Shown here: positions 7,981 to 54,203 of the stretch, piece by piece
Position numbering within the stretch: the first letter of the stretch is position 1
Layout of the letters: every line of letters starts with the position of its first letter
Assembly (NCBI GenBank): GCA_002383485.1
Contig: DFYY01000022.1
Span: 91,575 to 155,574, forward strand
Origin: Bacteroidales bacterium UBA4070
GTDB taxonomy: Bacteria; Bacteroidota; Bacteroidia; Bacteroidales; VadinHA17
Reading direction: 5' to 3'
Length of the DNA: 64,000 nt
Program-made: the position numbers and the translations under genes
The notes under the pieces: generated by a model
Seen by the model: the letters and a program-made list of their open reading frames with translations, nothing else
What the model was told of the DNA's origin: nothing
The model's database searches: none

Positions 7981-10136
7981 AGAGCATGACTGACAACCAA
8001 AACAGGACCGCACCCCGTCCGGGAATAAAGAGAAGAAGCTTCATCAAGGCACTGGGGGGAGGCATCGTCCTCTTCTTTGCTCCATGGAACGCAATTGATC
8101 TTATGGCGCTGCCTGCACCTCAGCGCCGGAGTCTGACGAAGGACTACAACGCCTTCCTTCATATTGCAACTGACGGTACGGTGAGTTGCTACACGGGAAA
8201 GATAGAGATGGGGCAGGGGATTATCACATCGCTGGCCCAGATGATGGCAGAGGAGCTTAATGTGCCGCTGGCGAAGGTCAAGATGGTGATGGGTGACACG
8301 GATCTGTGCCCCTGGGATGCAGGCACCTGGGGTTCTCTCACCACCAGGGCTTTCGGTCCGGCCATGAGGGCAGCTGCCGCTGAGACAAGGATGGTACTCG
8401 TGCAGATGGCTTCGGAAAAACTGGGAGTCGTGCCTGAAAGACTCGAGGTGACTGACGGTGAGGTATCTGTTTTGGGCGATCCTGCGGTACGCGTTTCCTA
8501 TGCCGAGCTGGCACAGGGAAAGAAAATGGAGAGGTATCTCGAGATAAAGCCTGCTCCGGAAGATTATACAAAGTACACACTGGTAGGCAAGCCGCTTAAG
8601 CACAGCGATGCATATGAGAAGGTTACTGGCAGGGCGAAGTATACCGGTGACCTGAGATTGCCCGGAATGCTTCATGCCCGGATATTGCGGCCCCCGTCAC
8701 ACGGAGCAAAGCTGGTGACGGCAGATCTTTCAGCTGCCGAAGCCATGGAAGGGGTCAGCGTTGTGCGTGAAGGCGATTTCATTGCGGTGCTGAGTGAAAA
8801 CCGTGATCTGGCGGATATCGCTATTGTCAGGATTAGCGCTGAATATTCATCTGATGAGCTTAATGTAGACAACTCTACTGTATTTGATCACATAAACAGG
8901 GGAGAGTACAGGCCCAACGTCGTGCGCAACGACGGAGATGTGGAGCTTGCAGCACCGCAGTGCGGAAGTCTGTTTGAGCACGAGTATCATGACCCCTATC
9001 TTGCGCATGCACCGATAGAGACACACACTGCTCTCGCAAACTTCGAGGATGGGAAGGTGACGGTCTGGGCCTCTACTCAGTCGCCTTTCGGCTTGCAGGA
9101 TACAATTGTCATGGAATTGGGTATGAGCCTTGAGACAGTGAGGGTGATCACTCCGTTTGTTGGCGGCGGTTTCGGAGGAAAGAGTCCGTCGCAGCAGGGT
9201 GTGGAGGCTGCGAGGCTGGCACGTTTGACCGGTAAGCCTGTGATGGTAGCCTGGACACGTGAGGAGGAGTTCTTCTATGATGCATTTCACCCCGCTTCTG
9301 TGGTAAAGGTAAAATCGGGCACAGACAGTGAAGGGAAGATAATGATGTGGGACTATAACGTCTACCTGGCCGGCACCCGCGGTGCTGATGTGATATATGA
9401 TGTCCCCAACGCCAGGGTCACGAGCCACAGCGAGGACAGGTCAAAGTACAGGGTTCATCCCTTCGCCACCGGTGCATGGCGTGCCCCGAACAACAACACG
9501 AACACCTTCGCCAGGGAGACGCAGATTGATATTATGGCCGCAGCAGCCGGGACTGATCCACTGGAATTCAGGCTCAGGAACCTGAAGGATGAGAAGATGA
9601 AAGGGGTCCTCAGGGCGGTAGCTGACAAATTCGGGTATGAACCGGGAAAGACGCCCTCAGGCAGGGGCATTGGCATAGCATGCGGTACCGATGCCGGCAC
9701 CTGGGTGGCATTCATGGCAGAGGTATCCGTTGACAGGACGACTGGCGCAGTAAGAATTGTCCGCCTCGCATGCGCACAGGATATGGGTCTGTGTGTCAAT
9801 CCGCAGGGAGCACTGCTCCAGATGGAGAGTTGCCTGACGATGGGCATGGGTTATACTCTGACAGAAGAGGTGAAGTATGTTGGCGGCGATGTGAAAGACA
9901 GGAACTTTGACAATTATTCCATTCCGAAGTTTTCATGGCTCCCGAAACTTGAATGTGTCATAATGGACAGGCCTGACCAGCCTTCGCAGGGAGGAGGAGA
10001 ACCTGCGATTATCGGAGTGGGAGCGGCGGTAGGCAATGCCATCTTTGATGGCACCGGCGCAAGGCTTTTCAGAGTGCCTTTTACACCGGAGAGGGTGATG
10101 GAGGCCATGGAAAAGTCGGAAGGTCGGAAGGTCTGA
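7977..10136 (+). CDS. molybdopterin-binding large subunit (IorB-like) with a Tat-type signal
   Basis: 719 aa. The N-terminal twin-arginine motif is KRRSFIKALGGG. GQG-type Moco-binding segments are present (KIEMGQGIITS). Its start overlaps the 2Fe-2S subunit stop. Confidence 0.8.
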   Translation: MKSMTDNQNRTAPRPGIKRRSFIKALGGGIVLFFAPWNAIDLMALPAPQRRSLTKDYNAFLHIATDGTVSCYTGKIEMGQGIITSLAQMMAEELNVPLAKVKMVMGDTDLCPWDAGTWGSLTTRAFGPAMRAAAAETRMVLVQMASEKLGVVPERLEVTDGEVSVLGDPAVRVSYAELAQGKKMERYLEIKPAPEDYTKYTLVGKPLKHSDAYEKVTGRAKYTGDLRLPGMLHARILRPPSHGAKLVTADLSAAEAMEGVSVVREGDFIAVLSENRDLADIAIVRISAEYSSDELNVDNSTVFDHINRGEYRPNVVRNDGDVELAAPQCGSLFEHEYHDPYLAHAPIETHTALANFEDGKVTVWASTQSPFGLQDTIVMELGMSLETVRVITPFVGGGFGGKSPSQQGVEAARLARLTGKPVMVAWTREEEFFYDAFHPASVVKVKSGTDSEGKIMMWDYNVYLAGTRGADVIYDVPNARVTSHSEDRSKYRVHPFATGAWRAPNNNTNTFARETQIDIMAAAAGTDPLEFRLRNLKDEKMKGVLRAVADKFGYEPGKTPSGRGIGIACGTDAGTWVAFMAEVSVDRTTGAVRIVRLACAQDMGLCVNPQGALLQMESCLTMGMGYTLTEEVKYVGGDVKDRNFDNYSIPKFSWLPKLECVIMDRPDQPSQGGGEPAIIGVGAAVGNAIFDGTGARLFRVPFTPERVMEAMEKSEGRKV

Positions 10137-10157
10137 AGGTCAGAAGGTCAGAAGGGC
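10118..10157 (+). repeat. tandem 8-bp repeat (NGAAGGTC, 5 units) spanning the stop codon of the Mo subunit
   Basis: GGAAGGTC GGAAGGTC TGAAGGTC AGAAGGTC AGAAGGGC. The TGA stop at 10134-10136 is the start of unit 3. Confidence 0.8.
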
Positions 10158-10243
10158 GGGAATCCTGAAGTTCCTGCCAGTGGGAAGGAGAAGAAGAGAC
10201 CGAAACGCCGCAGAATCCGAAAGGCGTGAGACAAATAAAAAAA

Positions 10244-47866: not shown

Positions 47867-47906
47867 CAGGGTGCACAGGAGACTGGCACCCTGTTTCATT
47901 TTTTCC
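47867..47906. terminator. hairpin terminator shared by convergent genes
   Basis: CAGGGTGC (47867-47874) pairs with GCACCCTG (47886-47893), followed by TTTCATTTTTT. Confidence 0.55.
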
Positions 47907-48435
47907 CGTGAGCTATCTGTTCTCTGCATCCGGTGCAGAGCGAAGAGCTCTTGAGATCTATCTCCTCTACGTATGTGCTGGACCGCATTACGCATGCATG
48001 ATTCTGGCAGTGAATAAGCCCGAACGTGTGTCCCAGCTCGTGAATCACCTCCTTAACGGTCCGTGAGAGGAGCAGTTTTTCATCCTGCTTCATTCCGTAA
48101 AGCTCATTGCGCAGACGGAATACAGAGGCAATTGCGTCGCTCTTTCCCAGGATGGCCTGGCCGAAGATATATGTGAGGATCGGAATATAGATATCCACTC
48201 TGAACAAACCCACCAGCTTGGTGTAATGTGATGCTGTGCAGAGTGGAATATGGCGCAGCAGCCTGTCTCCGTCATACTGTCTTCGGGTGGGATTATAGAA
48301 AGGGTTAAGGTCAAGATGGCACTCTTCGGTCATGACGCCGGTCCTGTATTCATTACCGACAGCCGTGGCCACCTGCCTCAGAAATTCCCTGTCAAACTGG
48401 CTGCAGGAAAGCAATATAATCCTCTTTTCTTCCAA
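47896..48435 (-). CDS. archaemetzincin-like zinc metalloprotease
   Basis: HELGHTFGLIHCQNHACVM...CTGC closely matches the archaemetzincin signature HEXXHXXGX3CX4CXM...CXXC. The start is uncertain. TTG at 48435 gives about 179 aa and avoids overlap with the regulator gene; the longest ORF extends to 48549. Confidence 0.7.
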   Translation of the reverse strand: MEEKRIILLSCSQFDREFLRQVATAVGNEYRTGVMTEECHLDLNPFYNPTRRQYDGDRLLRHIPLCTASHYTKLVGLFRVDIYIPILTYIFGQAILGKSDAIASVFRLRNELYGMKQDEKLLLSRTVKEVIHELGHTFGLIHCQNHACVMRSSTYVEEIDLKSSSLCTGCREQIAHGKK

Positions 48436-48455
48436 TGTGCAGGTATCAGGACAGG

Positions 48456-49796
48456 TTACTTCTTTTGCTTCAGGCCATACTTTCTGATCTTGTTGTAGAG
48501 GGTCACCCTGTCGACATTCAGCGCCCTGGCCGAGCGGGAAACATTCCACTCATATTTTGAGAGGATCTGTTCAATATGCTTCTTTTCAATTTCCTCCAGG
48601 CTCTCAACCGGGCTGTCAACAGCCTCCCTGCCCATTGGCAGATCCTTAAGTCTTATCTCCCTGCCGTTACCAATAACAATGGCGCGTTCAATCATGTTTT
48701 CCAGTTCCCTTACATTACCCGGAAATTCGAATTTCTCCAGTTGTTTCATTGCGGTGGGCTCTATGGCGATCAGGTCACGACTCATGGAGGTGCAGTATTT
48801 CCTGATGAAATGATTGACAAGCAGAGGGATGTCATCCGGTCTCTCGCGCAGCGGCGGGATGGTAATATTGACTACGTTCAGCCTGTAGTACAGGTCTTCG
48901 CGGAAGGTGCCGTTATGGACCATTGTCTTCAGGTCACGGTTGGTAGCACAGATGACCCTGAAATCAGATGTTATTTCCTTGTTACCACCTACCCTGTGAA
49001 AGCTTTTGGTTTCCAGTACCCTGAGCAGCTCAATCTGCATCTTGGGAGAGACGGTTGCGATCTCGTCAAGGAAAATTGTTCCGCCGTCGGCCATCTCGAA
49101 CCGTCCCTTACGGTTGAAGGTAGCTCCGGTGAAGGCGCCTTTCTCGTGGCCGAAGAGTTCACTCTCAAGGAGGCTTTCTGTCAACGCCCCGCAATGAACA
49201 CTGACCAGGGGGAAGTACCTTCTGGGGGAGTTGGCATGTATGGCCCTGGCAACCAGCTCTTTGCCAGTACCGCTCTCTCCGGTAATTATAACTGAGGAAT
49301 TAGACTGAGCAACACTCTCAATCTGCTCCAGGAGTCTCCGGATTGCTTCACTCTGTCCTATGATATCATCGATATCCTCCAGGGTGGTCACTCTCTTTTT
49401 AAGAGCTTCGTTTTCCTTGCTGAGACTGATCTGGGCCCCGGCATTGCGAATGAGGTGCGAGAGATCGTCAGGGTCAAACGGTTTGGTGACGTAATCATAC
49501 GCACCGTCCTTCAGCGCCTGTACCGCCGTCTCCACTGAGGCAAAGGCAGTCATAATGATGACGATGGATTCGCTGTTGAGTGCCTTTATCCTTCTCTGAA
49601 GCTCCAGCCCGTCCATCCCCGGCATCTTAATGTCAACCAGGATGATGTTGAATACTCTGTGTTCAAGGAGTTGGAGAGCTTTTTTTGCATTTTCTGCGGC
49701 TTCAACCTCGTAGCCGTCCTCGATGAACCAGTTGAGAAGGGAATCCCTTACAGAGTCCTCGTCATCAACTATCAGTATGGAAATCTTTTCTGCCAT
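48456..49796 (-). CDS. sigma-54-dependent response regulator (REC, AAA+ EBP and Fis-type HTH)
   Basis: The REC domain is ILIVDDE..DIKMPGMDG. The AAA+ Walker A is GESGTGKE, and the GAFTGA loop is present (HEKGAFTGA). A C-terminal HTH is present. Confidence 0.9.
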   Translation of the reverse strand: MAEKISILIVDDEDSVRDSLLNWFIEDGYEVEAAENAKKALQLLEHRVFNIILVDIKMPGMDGLELQRRIKALNSESIVIIMTAFASVETAVQALKDGAYDYVTKPFDPDDLSHLIRNAGAQISLSKENEALKKRVTTLEDIDDIIGQSEAIRRLLEQIESVAQSNSSVIITGESGTGKELVARAIHANSPRRYFPLVSVHCGALTESLLESELFGHEKGAFTGATFNRKGRFEMADGGTIFLDEIATVSPKMQIELLRVLETKSFHRVGGNKEITSDFRVICATNRDLKTMVHNGTFREDLYYRLNVVNITIPPLRERPDDIPLLVNHFIRKYCTSMSRDLIAIEPTAMKQLEKFEFPGNVRELENMIERAIVIGNGREIRLKDLPMGREAVDSPVESLEEIEKKHIEQILSKYEWNVSRSARALNVDRVTLYNKIRKYGLKQKK

Positions 49797-49806
49797 CTCC
49801 GGATGT

Positions 49807-51456
49807 TTATGTTGTTTTCAGCGGAAGAGTCATTGAAATGGTTGTTCCCCGGCCAACTTCCGAGTCGACTTCTATCTTGCCATTGTGGTTCTGTACAATG
49901 CCGTGCACGATGGCCAGGCCGAGTCCTATCCCGGATGCATCATGCTTGGTAGTAAAGAACGGTTCAAAAATGTGTGCTATATCTTCCTGTGCAATGCCTG
50001 ATCCGTTATCAGTTACCTCAATTCTGACACTCCTGTCATCGGGGTTCATGGTACGTATCATTATTTCCCCGTTGTCTGATACTGCTTCGGATGCATTCAC
50101 CAGCAGGGCAACGCAGGCCTGCTTAACCTGGTTGGCACTGCATCGGATCAGGTCTGCCTTTGCCTCAATCTTCGGGATGAAGCTGATGTTTGAGATCTTC
50201 GCATGATGGAGCATAATCTCGTAGGTACTTCTGATGATCTCGTTGAGATGATGCTCCTCAAAATCTTCCTGATCCTTGCGTGAGAAACCCAGTAATCCCT
50301 TTACAATATCACCACACCGTTTCGTCTCAGCCTCAATAAGTTTGAGCTGGTTCAGGATGTTTTGTCGCCTGACGGGCGTAAGGTCTTGGTTCTCAATTTG
50401 TTTGCGAACAAGTTTGGTGTAAACCAGTATGCCTGAGAGCGGGTTATTGATTTCATGTGCCACCGAGGCTGACAGTTTGCCGAGGGAGGCAATCCTTTCA
50501 ACGTTCATCAGTTCATTGTTGGCTTCAGACAGTTCCTCCGATTTTTTCTGGACCTTATACTCGAGCTGTTTCGACCAGTTTTCGAGCTCGCTGGTTGCGT
50601 TGTTAATGTTCTCCAGCATATTGTTGAATGCATGGGAAACCAGTTTCATATCATCAAGGAGGTCAGGCGTGACTTCGAGTCTTGTGCCCACTTCTCCCCT
50701 GGAGACAGCTTCGCTGGCCTGAATGAGGCTATGCAACGGGTCCTTTATCCTTTTGCGCGTGAACCATATCAGGGTGGTCACGATAATACCTGAGATCAGC
50801 AGTGCCATGAGAAGAAACTGAACTGATGATTTTTTCAGTGCACTGTCAAGATCTTTCAGCGGCATGCGGATGATCAGTGATCCAAGGACCTCTTCATTCT
50901 TAGTGTGCGCATGACAGCTGGCAGTGTAGCATGATAACTCGTTCAGAATCGGCCTGCGGATAAGCATATGCCTCTGGCCCGGCTGATTAGGCTTCATGGC
51001 GCAGTCACTCTTCTCATCAATAATCATATAGCTTCTCTCTTTCCTGGTAAATATCTCTCCGAGGTCTGAGTGACAGGAGATACAGTCAGGATTGCTGTGA
51101 TTTTCAGCATCAGCGGCAAAGGAAGAATAAGCAAGTATGTCATTCTGGTCGTACAGGTTGACGTCATCAATACCGGGCATCGTGTTGATGATGTCGAGGG
51201 TGCTGTGCAGAGTCCCCTTGTCATTCTCGAGCATCGATTTGTAAAGGGATCCTTCTACTATAGCCCCCACATTGTTGCCGTTCTGCCGGAGGACTGTGTT
51301 GAAATAATTAACATAAACAGTTCTGAAGATTGCGTTGAAAGCAATAAACATGATAATTGCAGCAAGGGAGATGATGGTTACCACCCTGCCATAGATGGTT
51401 GACCTGAACCTGAAATATTTCCGGAAATTCCGGAATGGATTGCCTGAATCCTTCAT
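49807..51456 (-). CDS. sensor histidine kinase with a Cys/His-rich periplasmic domain
   Basis: Two TM helices flank a domain of about 160 aa carrying CISCH and CYTASCH. These are followed by a HAMP-like segment, the H-box SVAHEINNPL and HATPase motifs (DNGSGI, GIGLGL). I prefer the start at 51456 (MKDSGNPF). Confidence 0.85.
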   Translation of the reverse strand: MKDSGNPFRNFRKYFRFRSTIYGRVVTIISLAAIIMFIAFNAIFRTVYVNYFNTVLRQNGNNVGAIVEGSLYKSMLENDKGTLHSTLDIINTMPGIDDVNLYDQNDILAYSSFAADAENHSNPDCISCHSDLGEIFTRKERSYMIIDEKSDCAMKPNQPGQRHMLIRRPILNELSCYTASCHAHTKNEEVLGSLIIRMPLKDLDSALKKSSVQFLLMALLISGIIVTTLIWFTRKRIKDPLHSLIQASEAVSRGEVGTRLEVTPDLLDDMKLVSHAFNNMLENINNATSELENWSKQLEYKVQKKSEELSEANNELMNVERIASLGKLSASVAHEINNPLSGILVYTKLVRKQIENQDLTPVRRQNILNQLKLIEAETKRCGDIVKGLLGFSRKDQEDFEEHHLNEIIRSTYEIMLHHAKISNISFIPKIEAKADLIRCSANQVKQACVALLVNASEAVSDNGEIMIRTMNPDDRSVRIEVTDNGSGIAQEDIAHIFEPFFTTKHDASGIGLGLAIVHGIVQNHNGKIEVDSEVGRGTTISMTLPLKTT

Positions 51457-51614
51457 TTGTCCGGTGATTATATTACCTGGCCATTTGTCCTGATAACAAT
51501 TCCCTGTGACCAGTTGCCCGAAGATGGGCAATTGATCGCAAGGAGTGTGTAATTTTTCTACAATGTACAAATATTCCCTGACTTCCGGAAATGAGTCTGT
51601 TGTGATCCGGTAAA

Positions 51615-52396
51615 TTATTTAAGGAATTCTTTCTGGAGCCTGTTCCATTCTTCAGAATTAAGGGTTGACAGTATATGGTCAACAGGTTCTACTCCGTCCT
51701 GCATATAAACGGCGGCAGTTTCATTTCCTGCTCTGCCGGCAGCACCCGCCTAAAATCCCTGATCCTTTCCAGTTCTTTTCTAAGCCAGTCAGTTGCCCCT
51801 TCAGCCACGGCAAAGCCCGTAACTTCTGCCATCCAGTCGGAGGGTCTGATTGAGCATATCCATCCTTTCCCGTACGGATCATCATGCAGAATCGACGGGT
51901 CCTCTCCAATTGCATGGTTCAGGCAGGTTACCATTCCGCTCAGGGGGGAGACAACTGCAAGTCTTTTGTCTCCCAGGGATATCTTGAGCAGTTTTTCGCC
52001 CCTGGTCAGTCTGCTGCCAGGTTCCTTAAGCACTTATGGCTTTTGTGAAGCATGCAGCATTGCAGGCAGGATCATTGCAATGCATGCACTGCCGCTTGAC
52101 ATAAACTTCGCCTTTGCTGGTCTTATAGGCATTGATCACAGTTCTCCTGATCTCATCCATCTTTCATTCCAGGCCGGCAACAGGCACATCTTCGAAACTT
52201 GGCGCCGGAAGACCGTGAGCCTCTGGCAGGCAGACTCACAGCCCTGGCAGCCGGCACAACGGGTTGAATTATAGAGCATTCCTACAAACTCTGGTTTGTC
52301 CAGGGTTTGCGGTGCAGCACTGATCCGGCTTCCCGTTGCGAGAGTAACGCCGGTGACCCAGAGTGCCTTAAAGAAACTTTGTCTGTCTGTACTCAT
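51615..52396 (-). pseudogene. mosaic, frame-disrupted gene: Tat-signal 4Fe-4S ferredoxin N-terminus joined to a GcvH-like domain
   Basis: My own three-frame reading of the minus strand. It starts with the Tat-like RQSFFKALWVTG and CAGCQGCESAC. A frameshift falls near 52220-52228, then AHGLPAPSFEDVPVAGLE. An in-frame TGA lies at 52164-52166, then KMDEIRR..KRQCMHCNDPACNAAC. A stop lies at 52026-52028, then a GcvH-like segment (SPLSGMV..DDPYGKGWI). A further frameshift falls near 51749-51757, and the tail ..VYMQDGVEPVDHILSTLNSEEWNRLQKEFLK is homologous to the C-terminus of the 555-aa neighbour. Confidence 0.6.
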
Positions 52397-52478: not shown

Positions 52479-54146
52479 TTACTGGTTCATGAACCTGATC
52501 TGGTATTCTTCCCATACCTCAGGCCCGAATTCATCAAGAAGCCCCTCTTTGAGTTCACCGCCGTCCTGCAGCACCACATGAGTCAGCCTGACATCGTTCG
52601 CACCTGTCACTGTTGCCACGAAGTCCTTCAGGCGCGCAAATTCTTCAGCTATCTGTTCCCTGTACTTTGTTGCTGCAGTCATAAGGCGCGATTCATTAAG
52701 CCAGTTTTCCGGCTCGATTCCGTATATCCAACCCTCTGCATAAGGGGAGGAGCGGAGCAGAGCCGTATCACCGGTGAGTTTTTCGTTACGCGAAATTATT
52801 GTACCGCTGACGGGTGAGATGATATCAAGTTGCCTGCCTCTCTGGATTACCGATGCAAGGCGTTCTCCCCTGCGGATCTTTTCACCTGCTGCTCTGAGTG
52901 TGACACGTGAAACTGTGCCGGTGACATGCTGCAGAAAATCGTCAATCCCCAGTGTAAGGGTTCCGTTTTTCTCCATGAATGCCCATGTATGGCTTTTGCC
53001 GTAGAGTATTCCGGCCGGTACTGTGACTGTGGCGGGTCCGAATGATCCCACCTCAACAGGCTGTTCACTGACGACGGTCTCAGGAGCACGTGATCTGCTT
53101 AACCGGTAGAGGAGGTATGAAATAATTGAGACTGCTGCTATCACCCCTGCTATCCATATCCATCCACCGGTGCCGGCCTTACGGTGATCTGTAGCCCGGA
53201 TCAGTTCTGTTTCAGGAGCCAGCATCTCTCTTTTGACCATTCCCTCTCCACCCGGAAGAGGTGTAAAACCTGCCTCAGCTATAAGCTCCTGCCCGCCTGA
53301 TAACAACCAGCGGACGAAATCAGCCTTAACTCCTTCGGCAGGCCTGGTTTCTGAGGCGCAGAAGATGCTGCTGAATAGTTCTTTCGGATATTTTCCTATA
53401 TATACACCACGGTTGAAACTGTTATAGTCACCGTAAAACTGTTCAAAATAGTCGGACTGACCATTGGCATTTACATCAATGGGGATGATGCCGATACCTT
53501 CCGGAAGGGCTGTTCCTGTTTCACCTGTCAGGGAAGCCAGCCTGCAGAAGAGGATCATGCCGGGATTCTTTTTGAGGAGGTCTGTTACCTCTCCGGTTGA
53601 AGAGAGACGCGATGCATTTATTGATGCTGCCTCAACGCCGGTAAAGCGTGCAAGGGCATCGACAGCATCGCTCCCGGAAGGAATGCCGGTGGTTACCTGC
53701 AGGGTGCCGTTGTTCCCCAGCAGCCTGCCCCAGGTCAGGGGAGCATCAGCTGTCAGCAGTACGCCGAACATTTGCGGGTCAATTCCTCTTGACATGATTG
53801 CATCATAAAAGGGATTTGCGGTACCCGTCACCGGAACCAGTATGTCACGGGCAACAATTACCTTCCATTCATCCTTCATGTCAACAATGTCAGCCGGAGT
53901 AGCTGAAAAGAACCTGATATCTGCCTGACCGCCTTCACCTGATGGCAGCACTTTCACCACTCTGCCCGGGTACTCGGAGAGGTATCCTTTTACCCATGAT
54001 CCTGCCAGGTTTTCAATCTCCTGCGATACCGAAACGGTAACCGATTCTGCTTTGCCAGCCGGGTGTCTGTCTGACTCTGTCTGTCCGCTCATTATTCCTG
54101 CCTGCAGCAGAATCAGACCTGCGATAATTGCGATAACTCTTTTCAT
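52479..54146 (-). CDS. membrane protein: periplasmic PstS-like substrate-binding domain, one TM helix, cytoplasmic GcvH-like domain
   Basis: 555 aa with a signal peptide. A type-2 binding-protein-like region of about 300 aa follows, a tentative call (..LTWGRLLG..GSDAVDALARF..). The TM helix is GWIWIAGVIAAVSIISYLLY. The C-terminal segment is HTWAFMEKNGTLTLGIDDF...SPVSGTI...SSPYAEGWIY, a glycine-cleavage-H fold pattern without the lipoyl lysine. Confidence 0.7.
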   Translation of the reverse strand: MKRVIAIIAGLILLQAGIMSGQTESDRHPAGKAESVTVSVSQEIENLAGSWVKGYLSEYPGRVVKVLPSGEGGQADIRFFSATPADIVDMKDEWKVIVARDILVPVTGTANPFYDAIMSRGIDPQMFGVLLTADAPLTWGRLLGNNGTLQVTTGIPSGSDAVDALARFTGVEAASINASRLSSTGEVTDLLKKNPGMILFCRLASLTGETGTALPEGIGIIPIDVNANGQSDYFEQFYGDYNSFNRGVYIGKYPKELFSSIFCASETRPAEGVKADFVRWLLSGGQELIAEAGFTPLPGGEGMVKREMLAPETELIRATDHRKAGTGGWIWIAGVIAAVSIISYLLYRLSRSRAPETVVSEQPVEVGSFGPATVTVPAGILYGKSHTWAFMEKNGTLTLGIDDFLQHVTGTVSRVTLRAAGEKIRRGERLASVIQRGRQLDIISPVSGTIISRNEKLTGDTALLRSSPYAEGWIYGIEPENWLNESRLMTAATKYREQIAEEFARLKDFVATVTGANDVRLTHVVLQDGGELKEGLLDEFGPEVWEEYQIRFMNQ

Positions 54147-54188
54147 GATGTACTTTTTTCACTGATAACTTTTCTGAAAACAGGCTTT

Positions 54189-54203
54189 CCAAAAAGCATG
54201 CCA
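54189..54203 (-). promoter_or_regulatory. sigma-54 promoter-like element upstream of the 555-aa gene
   Basis: The minus strand reads TGGCATGCTTTTTGG. The -24 GG is intact and the spacing is correct, but the -12 dinucleotide is GG rather than GC. It lies about 44 nt upstream of the ATG at 54146. Confidence 0.3.

Follow-up and report, generated by a model that had tools for sequence, protein, structure and literature searches.

The 64-kb stretch of DNA analyzed here, hereafter the window, holds on its minus strand (52396-51615) the joined remains of two genes, codons 1 to ~121 of a HybA/HmcB-type Tat ferredoxin and codons ~96-234 of a membrane-anchored GcvH-like protein. Translating this strand in its three frames between 52480 and 51560 recovered every piece, frameshift and stop described in a previous, sequence-only reading of this DNA, and mapped the lesions exactly. 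The ferredoxin piece opens in frame 0 at the ATG at 52396, reads MSTDRQSFFKALWVTGVTLATG with a degraded Tat motif, and extends to the first cysteine motif, CAGCQGCESAC (codons 1-57, 52396-52226; tblastn residues 1-57, 81% identity). The frameshift expected near 52220-52228 is a 1-bp deletion between 52225 and 52224, beyond which the piece goes on in frame 2 as EAHGLPAPSFEDVPVAGLE, a stop, KMDEIRRTVINAYKTSKGEVYVKRQCMHCNDPACNAACFTKAISA and a second stop (codons 59-121, 52223-52035; tblastn residues 59-121, 86% identity). The first of these stops is the in-frame TGA at 52166-52164, as previously described, and it is followed by the second cysteine motif, CMHCNDPACNAAC, and by the TAA at 52028-52026. 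The middle of the GcvH-like piece lies in frame 0 at 52033-51752 (codons ~96-189 of a 234-aa family), is devoid of the N-terminal transmembrane helix and of the first barrel strands, and opens mechanically as a 114-aa ORF with a GTG start that runs out of frame to 51689. A further 1-bp deletion between 51751 and 51750, where a frameshift had been suspected near 51749-51757, changes GATTTTA-GGCG from the TTCATGGCA of the intact gene. The C-terminal helical tail, AGAAGRAGNETAAVYMQDGVEPVDHILSTLNSEEWNRLQKEFLK, is then read in frame 2 (codons ~191-234, 51749-51615; tblastn residues 199-233, 66% identity) and closes as ...AAVYMQDGVEPVDHILSTLNSEEWNRLQKEFLK at the original stop codon, TAA 51617-51615.

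Both pieces belong to recognizable families, and their motifs are not fortuitous. Pfam reports GCV_H for the GcvH-like piece (E=6.8e-10, profile positions 38-104 out of 122 in total), which is 70-73% identical to intact proteins of 234-236 residues, while the ferredoxin piece reaches 83% identity with intact 291-residue ferredoxins; its match with the 4Fe-4S dicluster Pfam models is weak because the piece is short. When the concatenated conceptual protein was used as a query, it returned 102 relatives falling into two families, ferredoxins of ~289-291 residues and GcvH-like proteins of ~234-236 residues. All 102 matches cover one half and never both, and a natural ferredoxin-GcvH fusion family was thus rejected. 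The previously reported likeness between the tail of the remnant and the C-terminus of the upstream 555-aa protein extends to the whole 234-aa family, which matches the final ~200 residues of the 555-aa protein in an alignment reaching its last codon (32-37% identity). Elsewhere in the 64 kb, the long ORFs are all intact and densely packed, so the disruption is local, and tblastn finds no other ferredoxin or NrfD-like sequence in the window.

Measured against its intact homologues, the remnant is incomplete on several counts. The twin arginine, DRRSFFK or DRRDFFK in intact homologues, reads DRQSFFK; cysteine motifs I and II are kept and motifs III and IV (CMGCRYCMVSC and CDMC...CAEQC in homologue P0011) are deleted; the C-terminal anchor and the adjoining NrfD/HybB-like partner gene are both missing from the window. 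Likewise, the GCV_H barrel lacks its first strands (residues 55-95 of the 234-aa model), and no continuous ORF crosses the junction between the two halves, which carries a 4-nt offset and a TAA in all carriers. The remnant is presumably non-functional. From what is known of the two families, no working product would be expected from a ferredoxin piece with two of the four cysteine motifs and no C-terminal anchor, nor from a GcvH-like piece without its membrane helix and first barrel strands.

The intact locus in related genomes

The related genomes hold the intact ancestral locus, which the sequence-only reading had suggested looking for, and the gene lost between the two fragments is NrfD-like. 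The locus of the best ferredoxin homologue shares the flanks of the window, with glucose-6-phosphate dehydrogenase (G6PD) and 6-phosphogluconolactonase upstream and a peptidase M54 downstream. Its genes come in the order 556-aa PstS-like/GcvH-like protein, 291-aa ferredoxin, 410-aa NrfD/HmcC-like protein, 234-aa GcvH-like protein, 548-aa kinase and 446-aa sigma-54 regulator. Complete ferredoxin, NrfD-like and GcvH-like genes occupy the syntenic position in L006, L010 and L014; in L005, the apparent absence of an NrfD gene call was traced to a run of Ns in the scaffold, with no lesion. The proposal of a deletion that joined a ferredoxin gene onto a paralogue of the neighboring gene, with subsequent decay, is borne out by this syntenic locus. 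That the same event had removed oxidoreductase partners holds in part: one partner was lost, an NrfD/HmcC/HybB-like membrane subunit, but no catalytic oxidoreductase subunit was encoded in the ancestral cluster.

HybA/HybB and HmcB/HmcC each pair a tail-anchored Tat ferredoxin with a quinone-interacting membrane subunit of the NrfD family. These families, from Escherichia coli hydrogenase-2 and the Desulfovibrio Hmc complex, respectively, score best with the intact orthologues: the ferredoxin reaches 325 bits with HmcB (3e-97) and 246 bits with HybA (6e-73), and the membrane subunit 404 bits with HmcC (6e-121) and 250 bits with HybB (6e-74), all four scores lying under the NCBIfam curated cut-offs. 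The intact ferredoxins exhibit a DRRSFFK twin-arginine leader, four cysteine motifs and a hydrophobic C-terminus, and the intact orthologue satisfies TIGR01409; their genes form an overlapping tandem with the NrfD-like genes. The Tat signal, the four motifs, the hydrophobic tail and the overlapping tandem are all shared with the Hmc and Hyb pairs. A tandem of a HybA-like tail-anchored ferredoxin and a HybB/NrfD-like subunit located beside periplasmic c-type cytochromes, as well as the Hmc complex, has been described in a preprint on tail-anchored Tat substrates (bioRxiv 10.1101/2023.11.02.564894). Unlike the Hmc and Hyb systems, however, the present cluster is devoid of a hydrogenase, of the HmcA cytochrome and of HmcDEF, and comprises instead a pair of GcvH-like membrane proteins, together with a kinase bearing two haem-c motifs and a sigma-54 regulator; the window itself keeps only ~121 ferredoxin codons, the NrfD-like gene being gone.

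The AlphaFold model of the intact 234-aa protein (pLDDT 76) displays a transmembrane helix (residues 14-35), a GcvH barrel (residues ~55-170) and a helical tail (residues 172-233). Foldseek aligns it with H-proteins, including the GcvH-L protein 5a35, with TM scores of 0.82-0.88, and the family thus shares the GcvH fold by both Pfam GCV_H and structure. It differs from GcvH in other respects, as it is membrane-anchored, carries an extra helical tail of ~60 residues and scores below the gcvH equivalog cut-offs. Moreover, the column of the lipoyl-lysine (K65 in E. coli) is occupied by G, E or D in the GcvH-like family and the lysine is not conserved there; of the 29 members, 24 have K and five have R at the position that follows, while the 555-aa paralogue lacks such a lysine altogether. 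The copy in the window further misses the first ~40% of the domain.

A deletion and two stages of decay

Aligned at the DNA level with the intact locus, the window resolves into two blocks of 82% and 76% identity that lie 2,060 bp apart in the intact locus and meet at TGCTTAAG. The missing segment comprises ferredoxin codons ~122-291, the whole NrfD-like gene and codons 1 to ~95 of the GcvH-like gene. In a single event, a deletion of ~2,060 bp joined the front of the ferredoxin gene to the back of the GcvH-like gene and took out the NrfD-like gene in between. In intact relatives, a 9-nt word, ATGCTTAAG (Met-Leu-Lys), occurs in both genes in the same codon phase, 2,060-2,061 bp apart; it is exact in both genes of L006 and L007, while L010 has ATGCTCAAG and ATGCTGAAG. 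Replication slippage or illegitimate recombination at this microhomology is the most likely origin of the deletion. The repeat-mediated join is not clean, however. At the junction CCATAAGTGCTTAAGG (52039-52024), ferredoxin homology ends in ...GCCAT and GcvH-like homology starts with GCTTAAGG, and the observed order is GCCAT, AAGT, GCTTAAGG. The four extra nucleotides, AAGT, put the two halves out of frame and create the TAA at 52028-52026, which is the stop noted in the sequence-only reading, whereas a clean join at ATGCTTAAG would encode an in-frame chimera, ...CFTKA-MLK-EPGSRL.... Such a junction could arise either from a clean repeat join followed by a 4-nt insertion, or, if the GcvH-like gene broke 6 nt upstream, from a further 2-nt deletion and a substitution; the nearest intact relative with which the junction can be compared is only ~82% identical in the 555-aa protein.

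Two haplotypes of the remnant are found in public data. The window haplotype, with all its lesions, is found unchanged in L090 and L091; L092 matches it as well, except for a run of Ns that also accounts for the offset of L092. The recurrences come from a Logan assembly of SRR5324056, from ERZ922796 (SRR636559) and, apart from a run of Ns, from GCA_003536475.1, and the exact 114-aa ORF is present on thirteen contigs. Four other assemblies (GCA_030153585.1, GCA_030153505.1, ERZ15186024 and ERZ28615700) carry a sister haplotype with ~98% identity over the remnant and 99.0-99.7% in the genes that flank it. The deletion, the out-of-frame junction with its TAA, the 1-bp deletion in the tail (51751/51750) and the change of the Tat twin arginine to Arg-Gln are common to both haplotypes. 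Two lesions are found in the window haplotype only, namely the 1-bp deletion at 52225/52224 (CTGCC-AGAGG, CTGCCTAGAGG in the sister haplotype), which is the same in L090, L091 and L092, and the nonsense TGA at 52166-52164, which is CGA in the sister haplotype and Arg in intact orthologues. In the sister haplotype, the ferredoxin piece remains a 123-aa ORF and the GcvH-like piece a 186-aa ORF, the latter being cut to 114 aa by a new stop in the window haplotype. The tail deletion and the loss of the twin arginine would have followed the large deletion before the haplotypes separated, and the further 1-bp deletion and the CGA-to-TGA change would have come later in the window haplotype, so that the two public haplotypes represent successive decay stages of one pseudogene.

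These comparisons bear on two readings in which the lesions would not be real decay. The sequence-only reading had left room for assembly or sequencing indels that broke one or two intact genes, and three of the lesions are indeed small indels of 1-4 nt that resemble sequencing errors. Small corrections cannot recreate a ferredoxin, the NrfD-like gene or a complete GcvH-like gene, however, as ~2 kb of ancestral sequence is absent; the junction and the tail frameshift are found in the four assemblies of the distinct sister haplotype, the 1-bp deletion and TGA of the window are identical from other read sets (SRR5324056, SRR636559/ERZ922796 and GCA_003536475.1), and the other long ORFs of the window are intact. 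With at least five independent assemblies of two haplotypes in agreement, sequencing or assembly error is refuted as the source and retains a negligible probability. Programmed recoding, in which the TGA would encode selenocysteine or be read through and programmed frameshifts would yield one chimeric protein, could draw on the in-frame TGA and on frame shifts of a single nucleotide. Yet at these sites the sister haplotype reads CGA (Arg) and shows no gap, intact orthologues also have Arg, the orthologous genes are separate and uninterrupted in 45 species, and the chimera would miss parts essential to both folds. Since Rfam reports no RNA element, SECIS included, at E<=1 in the region and the lesions are not conserved, recoding was likewise rejected as extremely improbable.

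The substitutions separating the two haplotypes are consistent with decay as well. Over the remnant, they comprise 13 nonsynonymous and 2 synonymous changes (pN 0.021, pS 0.011), and the resulting ratio of 1.9, calculated from only 15 substitutions, is indistinguishable from neutral (p=0.54). For the same pair of haplotypes, eight flanking genes pooled display 26 nonsynonymous and 32 synonymous changes (pN/pS 0.25), which differs from the remnant (Fisher p=0.004), and the 555-aa gene alone has a pN/pS of 0.26. The substitutions in the remnant thus fit neutral evolution, while the flanking genes are constrained; the 555-aa gene, the kinase and the regulator are intact and under purifying selection. 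It could nonetheless be argued that the lesions gave rise to new small proteins, a 123-aa exported mini-ferredoxin or a soluble 114/186-aa GcvH-like fragment, retained because they modulate the neighboring sensor system. Gene calls in the sister haplotype do include the 123-aa and 186-aa ORFs, and the remnant outlasted the split of the two haplotypes inside an operon that is probably transcribed. Against this stand the pN/pS of ~1.9 compared with 0.25 in the neighbors, the two breaks of the 123-aa ORF and the shortening of the 186-aa ORF to 114 aa in the window haplotype, the lost twin arginine (RQ), the two remaining cysteine motifs out of four without an anchor, the barrel deprived of its first strands, and the clean removal of the module in ten related species. 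We consider such small proteins very unlikely. 

The remnant is instead, with high confidence, a genuine and recently formed pseudogene, produced by one deletion of ~2.06 kb followed by small lesions and neutral drift. Its age can be approached from the changes accumulated since the split from L010, the nearest intact relative, polarized with L006 as the outgroup. The stem leading to the remnant carries 28 nonsynonymous and 29 synonymous changes, and the functional L010 lineage 27 and 29. These similar proportions indicate that the genes were constrained for most of the time since the split and that the inactivation is comparatively recent. The remnant thereby resembles other bacterial pseudogenes formed by microhomology deletion, with a short direct repeat at the breakpoints, loss of the intervening gene, frameshifts and a nonsense mutation, neutral substitutions and complete removal in related lineages; it differs from the usual cases only by the 4-nt filler at its junction and by the two decay stages available in public data.

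The surviving sensor cluster and its lost module

The genes on either side of the remnant are preserved. Upstream, the intact 555-aa gene (52479-54146, minus strand) encodes a signal peptide, a PstS-like periplasmic domain, a transmembrane helix, a cytoplasmic GcvH-like domain (Pfam GCV_H, 2.9e-22) and a helical tail. The relationship of its N-terminal domain with PstS is distant and was seen in a profile search alone (profile against PDB PstS proteins, E=3e-6), single-sequence searches with this domain being uninformative. Downstream, an intact sensor histidine kinase of 549 aa (49807-51456, minus strand) starts at the ATG at 51456 and not at the upstream TTG at 51570, in agreement with the 549 aa given by gene callers in L090. 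Its periplasmic domain bears CXXCH and CX4CH motifs, within NPDCIxCH and SCYxxxCHAH, that are invariant in 57 out of 57 homologues, and probably binds two c-type haems, a reading for which Pfam returns E=0.18. The ensuing intact sigma-54-dependent response regulator (446 aa; 48456-49796, minus strand) comprises Sigma54_activat (3.3e-71), Response_reg and HTH_8 domains.

A sigma-54-type promoter-like motif, TGGCATGCTTTTTGGA, lies at 54203-54188 on the minus strand, 57 nt upstream of the 555-aa gene. The corresponding pattern, TGGCAY-N5-TTG, occurs within 250 nt upstream of the orthologous 555-aa gene in 69 out of 74 loci (median position -59), for a background of 0.003 per 280 nt. In the loci scanned, the ferredoxin, GcvH-like and kinase genes are never preceded by it, and the window and 64 loci have no sigma-54 promoter directly 5' of the ferredoxin gene. 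Between the 555-aa gene and the remnant there is no terminator, and consensus promoters and terminators are counted there at background. Judging from these sequence patterns, the motif probably serves as promoter for the entire cluster, remnant included; the remnant thus probably sits on the transcript from this promoter and may be passively transcribed. As the regulator is a sigma-54 activator and the sigma-54-type promoter is conserved, autoregulation of an operon that once held the lost module is a reasonable assumption. The sequence-only reading had regarded the remnant as part of a redox module tied to the adjacent sensor system. This link is supported by the six-gene synteny in 45 out of 57 loci and by the conserved promoter in 69 out of 74; the sensor would presumably have been the controlling side.

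A scan limited to a single genome for each species gave 80 loci that encode a homologue of the 555-aa protein, all in Bacteroidota and mostly in Bacteroidales, of which 57 species-level loci also hold the kinase and the regulator. Loci belonging to named or cultivable taxa include L071 (Draconibacterium orientale), L070 (Mariniphaga) and L088 (Bacteroidales bacterium 6E). The module is complete in 45 of the 57 loci; ten have cleanly lost the three genes, the 555-aa gene being followed directly by the kinase after a gap of 165-343 bp, and two are relics. The second relic, L021, has retained residues 213-284 of the ferredoxin together with 17 codons from the start of the NrfD-like gene, and its breakpoints differ from those of the window. 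On a neighbor-joining tree of the regulator and kinase, the losses are scattered: L064 stands alone within an intact clade, the intact L023 is nested inside a group formed by L021, L019, L026 and L016, and a grade of lost lineages lies outside the otherwise intact clade of the window. This scatter indicates that the loss of exactly these three genes is recurrent. The HybA/NrfD-like electron-transfer pair and its GcvH-like companion are therefore dispensable and have been lost repeatedly from a conserved sigma-54-controlled sensor cluster.

The same tree bears on the possibility that the fragments were acquired, the lineage having first been without the module and a partial copy having been inserted by recombination with a relative. 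The module is missing from several lineages that branch immediately outside the clade of the window, and loss followed by re-gain is formally conceivable. The closest relatives (L010, L006 and L014), however, have the full module in the same place, the intergenic flanks of the remnant are collinear with theirs, and the divergence of the remnant from L006 matches that of L010 with a similar ratio of nonsynonymous to synonymous changes, as expected if a functional gene had been inherited vertically until recently. Acquisition is accordingly very unlikely, and the pseudogene is best explained by deletion in place. Taken alone, it is an ordinary pseudogene, the value of which lies in its two-stage decay series, in the recurrence of the loss and in its pointing to an uncharacterized conserved cluster.

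The ancestor would have had a cluster of six genes, the first four following the sigma-54-type promoter. In order, these would encode the 555/556-aa PstS-like/transmembrane/GcvH-like protein, a 291-aa HybA/HmcB-type ferredoxin with four clusters, exported by Tat and tail-anchored, a 410-aa quinone-interacting membrane subunit resembling NrfD/HmcC/HybB, and the 234-aa transmembrane/GcvH-like protein, with the sensor kinase, bearing two predicted haem-c motifs, and the sigma-54 response regulator as genes five and six. Literature searches for this cluster (GcvH-like/NrfD/kinase; HmcB/HmcC in Bacteroidetes; haem-c kinase/sigma-54/menaquinone) returned no published description. We tentatively propose, as a speculative though conceivable function, that it might constitute an undescribed self-regulating redox sensor of the envelope, in which the menaquinone pool would be linked to the kinase haems through the ferredoxin/NrfD pair, the non-lipoylated GcvH-like domains would serve as cytoplasmic adaptors, and the three middle genes would be an optional input. 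If so, the three-gene losses in the window, in L021 and in the ten clean loci would mark the input branch as an optional add-on to a core made up of the PstS-like protein, the kinase and the regulator.

As regards annotation, public assemblies call two or three small "hypothetical" or "GcvH" genes in this region (114, 123 and 186 aa), which should be marked as one pseudogene remnant.

A second relic and the gene calls of the remnant

Another relic of the module of ferredoxin, NrfD-like and GcvH-like genes is found at positions 9655-10240 of locus L021 (WOYX01000004.1), where the 555-aa-type gene and kinase gene of another species flank it. It retains frameshifted ferredoxin residues 213-284 and codons 1-17 of the NrfD-like gene, and it arose independently of the remnant in the window. 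Public gene calls break up the remnant itself, at loci L001 and L002 as in the three independent assemblies of the window haplotype (L090-L092), into distinct small genes that are 123, 186 or 114 aa long. These calls are annotation artefacts of the pseudogene, and the 114- and 186-aa GcvH-like fragments in the collection carry the GCV_H Pfam match.

The 555-aa protein and its promoter motif

Searched alone, the periplasmic N-terminal domain of the 555-aa protein (window 53157-54146, minus strand) did not return any significant Pfam match. A 30-sequence profile of this domain finds PstS phosphate-binding proteins of known structure (4gd5, E=3e-6), and the 555-aa architecture is therefore a PstS-like domain, a transmembrane helix, a non-lipoylated GcvH-like domain and a helical tail. 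Upstream of the gene by ~59 nt, a sigma-54-type promoter motif, TTGGCAY-N5-TTG(A/G)A (window 54188-54203, minus strand; orthologous positions in loci L005-L089), is conserved in 69 of 74 related loci, and is kept both with and without the module.

The sensor kinase and its upstream region

The periplasmic part of the sensor kinase (gene at 49807-51456, minus strand; periplasmic part about 51100-50880) contains a CXXCH motif (NPDCISCH) and a CX4CH motif (SCYTASCHAH), both invariant in 57/57 homologues, as is a third conserved cysteine. The kinase is probably a redox sensor of the di-haem c type. Its true start is likely the ATG at 51456, the mechanical ORF start, a TTG at 51570, being located upstream. 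A non-coding block, TTTGTAYWTTGTAGAAAATTTAMACA, is conserved some 120 nt ahead of the kinase start; after it comes an inverted repeat, TGTGATC...GGTCACA (together about 51573-51500, minus strand). The block has the same sequence in the window and in the related locus L006, whereas their coding flanks share ~80% identity, and 25 of 70 loci show a recognisable form of it; it may serve as a kinase promoter or operator, or as a 5' leader.

The peptidase M54 gene

The mechanical ORF of the archaemetzincin-like peptidase M54 gene (47896-48549, minus strand; 217 aa) runs ~90 nt into the 3' end of the regulator gene. Since gene callers assign 172 aa to this gene in relatives, its start in the window is probably internal to the 217-aa ORF.
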